From the IMG/VR virus record IMGVR_UViG_2897352509_000007: a DNA stretch of 64,000 nucleotides; one strand, written 5' to 3'. Position 1 is the first letter of the stretch; each line of letters opens with the position of its first letter. This stretch comes from a virus (Duplodnaviria > Heunggongvirae > Uroviricota > Caudoviricetes). Below, one piece after another: positions 30,001-33,000 of this stretch. Position numbers: made by a program.

Positions 30001-33000
30001 GGATGCCGCTACCAGAACCGCCGCAGGAGGTGCGCCAATGATCTGGCCTGAAGCCTTTGCAATTACAGGCGTTGCTATAGCTATTGATTTTTTAGTATAT
30101 GTTATTTGTCGGTGGGGGTAAAAACGTTCGCCGGGATTCACACCAAAGGAGGGAATATGTCGGATGATATTTCACTGGCAATGGAAGGTGCGCTGGCTGT
30201 TATTGCTGTTGTGGGCGTTTACTGCCTGGTTGTGTTTTTGATGGATCGACTAGGGAACTGAATTCATTACGATATGGGAATTCCCATATCGGGTAAAAAC
30301 GGTTTGCGGTAAAGCGAGAGTTAAGTAGAATTGCTGCGGGTGCTTGAGGCTATCTGCCTCGGGCATGAACACCAACGGCAGATAGAGAAAAGCCCCAGTT
30401 AACATTACGCGTCCGGCAAGACGCTTAACATTAATCTGAGGCCATATCTATGCTCTACACACGTAGGTTAGCCTCTTACGTGCCGAAAGGCAAGGAGAAG
30501 CAGGCTATGAAGCAGCAAAAGGCGATGCTAATCGCCCTGATCGTCATCTGTTTAACCGTCATAGTGACGGCACTGGTAACGAGGAAAGACCTCTGCGAGG
30601 TACGAATCCGAACCGGCCAGACGGAGGTCGCTGTCTTCACAGCTTACGAACCTGAGGAGTAAGAGACCAGGCGGGGGAGAAATCCCTCGCCACCTCTGAT
30701 GTGTCAGGCATCCTCAACGCACCCGCACTTAACCCGCTTCGGCGGGTTTTTGTTTTTATTTTCAACGCGTTTGAAGTTCCGGACGGCGCCGGAATAGAAT
30801 CAAAAATACTTAAGTAGCGCGCAGGGAGAAGAGGGATGGACCCCGAACAGGGGAGTGCTATTTATCTGGAAGGATTCTGTTGATGAGAATCGAAGAATTA
30901 CGTGAAATTTTTAGTGAAGATGGCCTCTATACTGTGCGCGTTGAGAAGGGCGCTATTGTCAGCCACTGCCGTATTAAATGTTTACAGTCTCAACAAAGGA
31001 AGAGTGGAGCTGCGTTAATTCATTTTGTGGATGGGCTTGTGACGGATGGTTTTATTTTGCGTGCAAATGAATTTGTCACATCGTTGCCGTCTCTGAAAGA
31101 AGCTGGGATTAAGGCTGGTTTTTCTGCTTTTGAAGATTAGTGAATTCATCTACAATTCAGCGCAGGGCTGAACCCCTGTTGAGTAACACTGTGCCACCGG
31201 AGAAAGCCGATGGCGCAAAATTCCAGACTACACAATTCTGATGATTCTGCCGTCTTTGCCAGCAGGCGCGGACGGTGTTTTCACGCATTCAAGTCTGAAT
31301 GGTTCCAGCACCCTCCATGCACTGCAGAACAGGCCGAATGGCTGATTCATTCTTACCGCAGGCGCGGGTTCGAGGTTAAGAAAGCTCTCAGTCTCGACTA
31401 TCGGCACTGGATAATCTCTGTCAGGCTCCCTTACTCCGAACGGCCACCGCGTCCGTCCCGCACATTCCAGCAACGGATCTGGAGGTAATGTGCGGGTATT
31501 ACTTCGACCTGTTCTGGTACCGGAACTCGGTCTGGTTATCGTTAAGCCAGGCCGTGAATCAATGTCAGCATTCCATAACGGCAGAATACTGGTGGAGCCG
31601 GAACCAAAAAGCATGCGAGCTCTGCCGTCCGGGGTTGTACCTGCCGTTCACCAGCCGCTGGCGGAAGATAAATCACTACTGCCATTTTTCAGCGATGAGC
31701 GGGTGATCCGTGCTGCGGGTGGCGCTGGTGCACTGTCTGACTGGTTATTACGTCACGTGAAATCCTGCCAGTGGCTACACGGTGATTATCATCACAGCGA
31801 AACCGTCATTCACCGTTACGGTACCGGCGCGATGGTGTTGTGCTGGCACTGCGACAACCAGCTGCGGGAGCAGACATCTGATTCACTGGATCAACTTGCT
31901 CAACAGAATCTGGCCGCCTGGATGATTGACATCATCCGTCACGCAATGAATGGCGCACAGGAGCGGGAATTATCTTTGGCTGAATTATCCTGGTGGGCGG
32001 TCTGCAATCAGGTGGTGGATGCACTACCTGAGGCTGTATCGCGTCGTTCGCTGGGATTACCAGCGGAAAAAATCTGCTCGGTGTACCGCGAAAGCGACAT
32101 CGTACCGGGAGAACAGACCGCCACCAGCATACTGAAGCAGCGCACAAAAAATATTGCGCTACCGCCTCACACCCACCAGCAACAAAAATCACCACAGGAA
32201 AAGACGGTGGTAAGCATCACCGTTGATCCAGAGTCTCCGGAATCTTTCATGAAGCTGCCTAAACGTCGCCGCTGGGTTAAGGAGAAATACACACGTTGGG
32301 TTAAGACACAGCCGTGTGCGTGTTGTGGTAAGCCAGCCGACGATCCGCATCACCTGATTGGTCATGGTCAGGGCGGAATGGGGACAAAATCTCACGATAT
32401 TTTCACGCTACCGCTGTGTCGGGAGCATCACAACGAGCTTCATGCGGATCCGCTGGCGTTCGAAGAAAAGCATGGTTCTCAGGTTGATTTAATTTTTCGT
32501 TTTCTTGATCACGCCTTTGCAACCGGCGTGCTCGGGTAAAAGAGGTGACTGATGCTCATAGATTTGGTTTTACCTTACCCGCCGACGGTGAACACTTACT
32601 GGCGACGCCGTGGCAGCACATATTTTGTATCAAAAGCCGGGAAGCGTTATCGCCGGGCAGTGGCGCTTATTGTTCGCCAGCAGCGACTGAAATTAAGCCT
32701 GTCCGGACGGCTGGCAATAAAAATTATTGCAGAGCCACCGGATAAGCGCCGCCGCGACCTGGACAATATCCTGAAAGCACCGCTGGATGCGCTGACGCAC
32801 GCGGGGTTGTTAATGGACGATGAGCAGTTTGATGAAATCAATATTGTACGTGGAAAGCCAGTATCTGGTGGACGTCTGGGGGTGAAGATTTACCCCATAA
32901 TGCTTGAAGGGCAGGTCAAAAAATGAAACTGGAAGATTTACCGAAATACTACTCCCCAAAATCCCCTGGCCTGACCGATGCATCGGCCTCAACGTCAAAA

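Follow-up and report, generated by a model that had tools for sequence, protein, structure and literature searches.

A hokD locus without relBE in a lambdoid prophage region: a hok/mok/sok cassette, two small membrane-peptide genes and a palindrome shared with KilA-N genes

The toxin gene hokD is known from the Qin prophage of Escherichia coli K-12 as the third gene of relBEF, which raises the question of what kind of locus it belongs to when relB and relE are absent. This is the situation in a 64,000-nucleotide stretch of DNA from a virus of the Caudoviricetes (IMG/VR record IMGVR_UViG_2897352509_000007), the whole of which we call the window. An earlier note on this DNA had described a hokD gene preceded by two open reading frames (ORFs) for hydrophobic peptides of 27 and 34 amino acids (aa) and by a perfect palindrome, and had singled out the place as the likeliest home, within the window, of an undescribed small toxin or regulatory module. 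All four elements are indeed present, between the replication genes and DUF968/RusA/Q, and neither relB nor relE is found upstream of hokD, where a DUF551-domain gene and the two small ORFs stand instead. The palindrome is perfect as described, its length being 22 bp and not 20. At the hokD region the chromosome of E. coli 2014C-3061 (NZ_CP027548.1) has a sequence 100% identical to that of the window, and on it RefSeq annotates the DUF551 gene, the 34-aa ORF and hokD but not the 27-aa ORF. We consider it likely that a mosaic junction lies here, in the early (replication-to-Q) part of a lambdoid prophage from Shiga-toxin-type E. coli, and that it is built of three separable parts: a canonical hok/mok/sok cassette, two genuine genes for small membrane peptides, and a palindrome that is a fragment of a KilA-N gene.

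The hok/mok/sok cassette

The window HokD has the same protein accession as HokD of K-12, and its gene is embedded in a larger structure (Table 1). The Rfam hok/sok leader model (RF01794) scores 111.7 bits at 30338-30512, for a gathering score of 59, and in a pairwise alignment the sokW, mokW and hokW annotated in phage 933W fall base for base on sokD, mokD and hokD, with 92% identity over the module. The mokD frame starts upstream of hok and overlaps it, and translation of hok may be coupled to it. Opposite the mok translation start lies sokD, from which an antisense RNA would be expressed under its own putative promoter, ending in a long terminal hairpin (predicted at -28.6 kcal/mol) with a short T run after it. 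A search for a Sok-like antisense gene on this minus strand had been suggested in the earlier note, and Rfam, the 933W mapping and folding together place it exactly there. The 5′ end of the putative hok mRNA (tac) can pair over a long range with an element near its 3′ end (fbi), the 5′/3′ duplex amounting to -21.5 kcal/mol, and an intrinsic terminator is found downstream. The -35 and -10 boxes assigned to hok are conserved across all aligned contexts; this promoter is absent from the output of a simple promoter scan.

By these features, the cassette at window 30291-30757 is a canonical and complete type I toxin-antitoxin system of the hok/mok/sok kind, that is, already known biology. It would operate as do the locus of plasmid R1 and hokW-sokW of prophage Sp5/933W. 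The stable hok mRNA would be held inert through pairing of its 5′ end with the 3′ element, the unstable antisense Sok RNA would stop translation of mok and hence of hok, and upon loss of Sok the Hok peptide would insert into the inner membrane. For hokW-sokW, which is 92% identical, Hok toxicity and its neutralization by Sok have been demonstrated, and the locus has been established experimentally as a type I system that aids the release of phage Sp5 after mitomycin C (PMC8621323). A point that weighs against our reading is that the putative transcription starts of hok (~30338) and of Sok are placed by homology only.

The Rfam ′sok antitoxin′ model matches the plus strand at 30338-30512, over the hok leader, and sokW of 933W is on the minus strand. 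Since the match falls on the leader strand, its strand is not to be taken as that of the antisense RNA. A sub-threshold match to isrK (24.9 bits, gathering score 50) covers 30671-30752, in the hok 3′ untranslated region and terminator, and most likely reflects a generic resemblance between hairpins followed by terminators.

The absence of relBE had been put forward as a peculiarity of this locus. The form turns out to be common, ancestral and already annotated, and it is K-12 that carries the truncated one. Indeed, matches to the hok stretch are present in 4743 of 5426 complete E. coli genomes, and homology with K-12 sets in no earlier than window 30493, 14 nt short of the hok ATG. The K-12 sequence before this point holds relE and relB (gene order relB-relE-hokD), and K-12 thus lacks the promoter of hok, the start of mok and the greater part of sok. 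In the window, relB and relE are not immediately upstream of hokD, so that no co-transcribed relBEF operon is present. The ancestral hokD ORF has been described as having about 70 codons, shortened to 51 through the integration of relBE (PMC6379469). Because the complete locus is found in most E. coli and K-12 is truncated, hokD without relBE is the rule. As judged from the alignment, relBE-hokD of K-12 is a derived locus: all the DNA 5′ of the hok ribosome-binding site would have been replaced. This corrects a common picture: relBEF of K-12, the textbook case, is exceptional, and the form found in most E. coli is the intact prophage one.

Table 1. Features of the hokD locus, in window coordinates.
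Feature	Position	Strand	Basis or details
DUF551-domain gene, 120 aa	29679..30041	+	ORF list; Pfam DUF551 4.6e-22; RefSeq; stop overlaps start of 27-aa ORF
27-aa ORF MIWPEAFAITGVAIAIDFLVYVICRWG, single-helix membrane peptide	30038..30121	+	ATG overlaps DUF551 TGA as ATGA
Direct repeat GGGTAAAAACG, 11 bp, left copy	30116..30126	+	Read from sequence
34-aa ORF MSDDISLAMEGALAVIAVVGVYCLVVFLMDRLGN, single-helix membrane peptide	30157..30261	+	RefSeq CDS WP_001278450.1, hypothetical
Perfect palindrome CGATATGGGAATTCCCATATCG, 22 bp	30270..30291	.	9-bp stem and 4-nt centre; RNA hairpin -14.5 kcal/mol
Direct repeat GGGTAAAAACG, right copy; left edge of widely shared hok module	30291..30301	+	Many E. coli matches start at 30291-30295
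Putative hok promoter	30303..30331	+	-35 TTTGCG 30303-30308, 17-bp spacer, -10 TAGAAT 30326-30331; read from sequence
Putative hokD mRNA	30338..30757	+	tac 30338-30350; fbi ~30708-30724; terminator stem 30731-30748 and T-run
sokD antisense RNA gene	30388..30458	-	Maps exactly onto sokW misc_RNA annotated in 933W
mokD reading frame, 70 codons, in frame with hok	30450..30662	+	ORF list; maps onto annotated mokW of 933W
Putative sokD promoter	-35 TTGCCT 30493-30488, 17 spacer, -10 TAACCT 30470-30465	-	Sequence
hokD toxin gene, 51 aa	30507..30662	+	Pfam HOK_GEF (PF01848) 1.2e-23, above cut-off; PHROG 251 2.8e-33; RefSeq hokD

The two small membrane-peptide genes

If the toxin belongs to a known system, what are the two ORFs that precede it? 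The 27-aa product has its hydrophobic stretch at residues 7-24. Matches to this ORF were found by tblastn in 92 phage records, including 933W, BP-4795 and Av-05. The 933W copy is unannotated and lies between L0139 and the hok promoter, and in BP-4795 and the virulent phage Av-05 the ORF comes after a DUF551-type gene, and hok is not found in the vicinity. Scanning viral contigs with a sequence pattern yielded 163 family members, of which 157 have exactly 27 codons and 155 start with an ATG in an ATGA overlap, the upstream ORFs being mostly of 100-300 codons. hok follows within 450 nt in 106 members and not in the other 57. Comparison of 59 nucleotide alleles gave synonymous (pS) and non-synonymous (pN) values of 0.36 and 0.10 (pN/pS 0.29), or of 0.35 and 0.15 (pN/pS 0.43) once the codons of the search pattern were left out. 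Variable sites in both peptide genes are commonest at third codon positions. The kept length, the ATGA overlap, the low pN/pS and the loci without hok argue that the 27-aa ORF is a real small gene, and one that appears to travel with the gene preceding it. It is probably translated by coupling to that gene; it would be read from the phage early transcript and expressed through termination-reinitiation coupling to the DUF551-type gene. With its overlap kept in 155 of 163 members, it offers a ready test case for translational coupling.

The 34-aa ORF has a strong Shine-Dalgarno sequence (AAGGAGGG) four bases 5′ of its ATG, and its product is hydrophobic over residues 12-29. Its phage relatives are confined to four records, with 44-50% identity. 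In phage Tritos and in E. coli IAL7254 the relative is a 29-aa ORF (MLVLKCALAIAAVMAIYCLAVVLMDRLSD) with an AGGAGG ribosome-binding site, which abuts the hok promoter on its upstream side. The genes further upstream of this type are unlike those of the window, the nearest annotated gene in Tritos being ~500 bp off and on the opposite strand. A motif scan recovered 126 members of the family in two divergent allele types, that of the window (pN/pS 0.20) and that of Tritos (pN/pS 0.08), each with an AGGAGG ribosome-binding site and separated by a pS of 0.68 and a pN of 0.25. The two types differ mainly at synonymous positions and by conservative replacements.

In support of the earlier note, both small ORFs are conserved among related prophages and behave as real, uncharacterized genes for hydrophobic single-helix peptides. 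They are very short, and the 27-aa ORF has no RefSeq annotation, as one might expect of chance open frames in a non-coding spacer. But length, frame, start context and hydrophobicity are kept over 59 and 24 distinct nucleotide alleles with pN/pS well below 1, and mainly synonymous differences with conservative replacements, as between the 34-aa allele types, are unlike chance frames; we regard that explanation as highly improbable. Databases label both peptides hypothetical. A phmmer search of the 34-aa peptide against 1.84 billion representatives returned 7 near-identical entries and no distant relatives, and literature searches by protein accession and by peptide sequences found no mention. 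The peptides are new and uncharacterized additions to the small membrane proteins of phages, a broad and poorly charted class.

The proposal that they form an undescribed type I toxin or a new small toxin or regulatory module fared less well. Both are small, hydrophobic and single-helix, with one hydrophobic stretch each, in the size class of TisB, Ldr, Zor and Ibs; they adjoin a type I system; and promoter-like matches are found on the minus strand at 30181-30154 and 30122-30094. However, no cognate antisense RNA with promoter and terminator was found for either peptide. Rfam gives no match over the peptide region at E up to 1, the minus strand shows no terminator-like site, including downstream of these two promoter-like matches, and such matches number four in the scanned kilobase (expected 0.9, sd 0.9), each with just 9/12 consensus. 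Besides, the ATGA coupling of the 27-aa ORF to the gene before it is an operon arrangement and not that of a stand-alone repressed toxin, the N-terminal region that an antisense RNA must cover is unconserved between the two 34-aa allele types, and neither peptide has a significant match in Pfam, PHROGs or NCBIfam. We find it improbable that these peptides are type I toxins or make up a new toxin module.

The link between the 34-aa ORF and hok is a separate matter. A hok leader lies within 500 nt of 122 of the 126 family members, and of the remaining four, two lie at contig ends, one has a diverged hok and one a degraded one. In the window, the 34-aa ORF and the palindrome form a 175-bp block bounded at both ends by GGGTAAAAACG. 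This cassette is present in 735 of the 5426 E. coli genomes, with a median of three copies and mostly in Shiga-toxin-producing strains. In the otherwise collinear 933W and MS10711 it is missing, and the 27-aa ORF is joined to the hok promoter via a single copy of GGGTAAAAACG. This suggests that the cassette may be gained or lost through recombination between the short repeats.

Such linkage could also mean that the 34-aa peptide is a functional partner of Hok, acting as a membrane modulator or immunity peptide, or that transcription through its gene feeds the hok promoter. All 126 sampled members lie directly upstream of hok or a hok remnant, the cassette is joined to hok in 661 of the 675 E. 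coli records that hold it, which favours a partnership, and the two allele types, although diverged, hold this position despite different upstream genes. On the other hand, most hokD-type loci do without the 34-aa ORF (4743 genomes with the hok stretch versus 735 with the cassette), hokW-sokW of 933W works without it, and the sampled copies all come from related enterobacterial prophages, so that the linkage may be inherited. We judge a partnership unlikely. We take both peptides to be accessory phage membrane peptides and not toxins of a toxin-antitoxin system; the 34-aa gene would be read from the phage early transcript, use its own strong ribosome-binding site and travel with hok. Two points weigh against this view. 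The peptide samples were selected by pattern and come from closely related E. coli prophages, so that conservation and linkage are partly inherited, and the strict linkage of the 34-aa ORF to hok, which we treat as synteny, may reflect a functional tie. In such samples the conservation of the peptides is well supported and the independence of the hok linkage is not; the 34-aa product counts as a candidate Hok-associated peptide.

Of the 8 contexts read upstream of hok, 4 have a small hydrophobic ORF immediately before the gene (window/O157, MS10711/933W, IAL7254/Tritos and RIVM). In E. coli RIVM_C039205 (locus L005, 1236-1454), another prophage context, the ORF immediately before hokD is a distinct one, unannotated and ~60-72 aa long, whose product has two hydrophobic stretches. 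In phage Tritos (locus L011, 1011-1301), a cysteine-rich ORF of 96 codons overlaps the Tritos-type peptide ORF in another frame and is a candidate only.

The palindrome and its counterpart in KilA-N genes

The third element, the palindrome, occurs once in the window, and 100 shuffled sequences contained no match to it with up to 3 mismatches. It lies 47-68 bp upstream of the putative hok start (leader at 30338), with its centre 57.5 bp upstream. The idea that it takes part in the fold-back control of hok mRNA has to be abandoned: the palindrome is upstream of the transcript, it is missing from most hokD loci (including 933W, MS10711 and IAL7254), and the true pairing elements are elsewhere, at 30338-30350 and ~30708-30724. 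An intrinsic terminator was likewise rejected, as there is no T-run (the palindrome is followed by GGTAAAAACGG on the plus strand and TAATGAATTCAG on the minus strand) and the terminator scan does not list it. For the palindrome Rfam has no family, whether it stands in the window, between genes elsewhere or in KilA-N genes, and a literature search by its sequence found no mention.

A different origin is indicated by its distribution. The same 22-mer occurs 143 times in viral contigs and in at least six different phage contexts; half of the instances are far from hok, and some thirty are inside antirepressor-type genes with a KilA-N domain (Pfam PF04383, 4.5e-27), where it encodes D-M-G-I-P-I-S. 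The window 22-mer is identical to this version, the commonest one in enterobacterial genes. KilA-N relatives were collected with protein patterns, both in viral contigs and in genomes (one per species), which avoids ascertainment by DNA sequence. They form a subfamily with ~60% protein identity across Enterobacteria, Alphaproteobacteria, Verrucomicrobiota, Bacillota, Bacteroidota, Chloroflexi and Spirochaetia. Such cross-phylum conservation is unusually high and would imply a wide horizontal spread.

Inside these genes the DNA itself is constrained. In enterobacterial-type genes the codons of the palindrome are frozen (GAT in 31/31, CCC in 32/32, ATA in 31/31 and TCG in 25/25), and three or four synonymous codons are in use at other invariant residues of KilA-N. 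The inverted repeat persists across 84-88 distinct sequences through compensatory change, with arms of 9-10 bp and a 4-nt centre that is AATT in 63/84. Variants (centre in lower case) include CCGATATGGGaattCCCATATCGG for DMGIPIS, CCGAAACGGGaattCCCGTTTCGG for ETGIPVS, CCGATATCGGaattCCGATATCGG for DIGIPIS, GGTCTATGGGaattCCCATAGACC for SMGIPID and TTCCGTGGTCGGaattCCGACCACGGAA for VVGIPTT. Watson-Crick pairing at pairs 3-10 holds in 621 of 704 cases in register, compared with 37-237 of 704 after displacing the partner by one to three bases. When right arms were shuffled among sequences, 487 ± 8 of 756 positions (pairs 3-11) were paired, versus 609 observed. In 87 of 88 sequences the proline codon ends in C where the codon before it ends in G, and in G where that codon ends in C; as its third base is a synonymous site, the covariation cannot stem from selection on the protein. 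More distant KilA-N genes keep the arms around a longer centre, as in the Bacteroides LoVEphage (GCCGATATG-8 nt-CATATCGGC) and in Planktothrix PaV-LD (CGATATCG-6 nt-CGATATCG).

G.T and A.C mispairs number 8 and 10 in the repeat, which gives no sign of a sense-strand RNA hairpin, and no second copy of a genome′s own palindrome variant was found within 1 kb of the KilA-N genes. A mutational ′quasipalindrome correction′ is unlikely to be the sole source of the covariation, since intergenic copies of the same sequence are uncorrected. Neither Rfam nor a literature keyword search (KilA-N with palindrome or hairpin) returned a description of this intragenic repeat. The nucleotide-level constraint inside KilA-N genes is strongly supported and apparently undescribed.

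How does the window copy relate to this element? In build it is the same, with 9-10 bp arms and a 4-nt NATN centre closed by GG/CC, but it does not lie in a KilA-N ORF coding x-x-G-I-P-x-x, and tblastn found no KilA-N ORF of this subfamily in the 64-kb window. The frame of the 34-aa ORF, continued past its TGA (30262-30309), reads IHYDMGIPISGKNGLR up to the next stop, which is the DMGIPIS motif of KilA-N without a start codon. It is probably a fossil reading frame, which read-through of the TGA would append to the 34-aa peptide. By local alignment, the left flank of the window/L014 lineage, TGAATTCATTA, aligns with a single indel to that of KilA-N genes, TGAATTATCACG, and another intergenic copy (locus L154) is a ~60-nt fragment of a KilA-N gene, homologous in its flanks as well. 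The element decays where it lies outside KilA-N genes. Uncompensated mismatches were found in 23 of 64 copies of one lambdoid intergenic context selected by its flanks alone, and the window-type context holds several uncompensated variants. That intergenic copies are discrete 22-bp mobile or operator units is weakened by the flank homology (L154, L014/window) and by this decay in a flank-selected sample.

Given the identity and flank homology to KilA-N, the uncompensated variants outside KilA-N genes and the absence of a KilA-N gene from the window, the most economical reading is that of a relic: the window palindrome is most likely what remains of a KilA-N gene at a recombination junction. 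A KilA-N fragment would have been left at the junction and then carried with the hok module into several contexts; the two are seen together behind paa, an ORF6N gene and the 34-aa ORF. As the most conserved stretch of KilA-N DNA, the 22-mer would be a likely crossover point between phages. Against this reading speak the shortness of the window flank homology (~12 nt with one indel), the fact that the palindrome is still perfect in most window-type copies, and the position of its centre, which fits a regulator site.

The last two points could also be read as signs of a working cis-element, either an operator at which a dimeric phage protein, of KilA-N type or other, controls the hok promoter, or a hairpin that shields hok from early transcription coming from upstream. 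The hairpin energy (Table 1), the recurrence of the 22-mer in at least six phage contexts and the clear nucleotide-level selection inside KilA-N genes would agree with such a role. Yet the palindrome has no T-run after it, there are hok loci with an identical promoter and no palindrome, all variants outside KilA-N genes are uncompensated, the UTME-13 lineage has only the right arm left, and the window has no KilA-N gene of this subfamily. We consider a working cis-element doubtful here. More doubtful still is the broader proposition in which the palindrome is a free-standing copy of a deeply conserved cis-element, kept inside KilA-N genes by compensatory and in part synonymous substitutions from Enterobacteria to Bacteroidota, Chloroflexi and cyanophages. 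It would be a candidate site through which a KilA-N-type or other dimeric phage protein at the hok promoter would tie Hok production to prophage induction, with the hok-linked 34-aa peptide as a third, undescribed component of an extended prophage hok module.

Three arrangements of the palindrome elsewhere were recorded. In E. coli O55:H7 DEC5E and a dog isolate (L012 and L013, 1380-1740), the adhesin gene paa is immediately followed by the palindrome and hok as one module, with a few bases of the 34-aa ORF 3′ end (GAACTGAATTCATT) left, and hok is truncated in L013. In lambdoid nin regions (L136 2149-2215, L146, L150, L153, L164 and ~60 more loci), a conserved 3′ module without an Rfam match follows various genes and consists of CTACCATACAAG, the palindrome, 8-11 nt and an intrinsic terminator (GGCCTCTTCGGAGGCC and a T-run); from its layout it looks like a two-hairpin 3′ end or a small RNA. 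In L139 (13840-13960) and L144 (6820-6950), the palindrome lies between two direct repeats AACCAATGCGCGCACAAATTAA, just past one end of a 754-aa ORF, in a layout that looks iteron-like.

The KilA-N repeat could outweigh the results on the locus itself, in that it points to an unrecognized function at the DNA or RNA level in a very widespread family of phage regulators. It may also explain why fragments of KilA-N genes mark the junctions of lambdoid modules.

Comparison with known systems

The prototype of type I toxin-antitoxin systems, hok/sok of plasmid R1, has the same parts as the window locus, namely the Hok/Gef toxin, mok, Sok, the 5′/3′ fold-back pairing and the terminator. It differs in that the window locus lies in a prophage and not on a plasmid, and in that promoter and start are here putative, set by homology. 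The relBEF locus of K-12 Qin encodes an identical HokD and is followed by the same genes (a Rem-like ORF, a 92-aa ORF and DUF968/ydfU). Its sequence is common with ours only from window 30493, and its state is the derived one according to the literature (PMC6379469).

The products of the 27-aa and 34-aa ORFs resemble TisB, Ldr, Ibs, ShoB, Zor and DinQ in size and in their single hydrophobic helix, but have neither a detected antisense RNA nor sequence similarity to them. Unlike these type I toxins, the 27-aa ORF is operon-coupled and the 34-aa ORF has a strong, exposed ribosome-binding site. The window 22-mer equals the enterobacterial version of the palindrome embedded in KilA-N genes, and differs from it in lying outside any KilA-N ORF, where the element decays without compensation.

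The closest relative is hokW/mokW/sokW of 933W and Sakai Sp5, which is the same module, with hok, an in-frame 70-codon mok and an antisense sok at matching positions, and which in 933W also has a homologue of the 27-aa ORF directly upstream. The 933W locus differs in being in the early-left region, near int, and in that its 27-aa ORF abuts the hok promoter, whereas in the window the 175-bp cassette with the 34-aa ORF and the palindrome is intercalated between the two.

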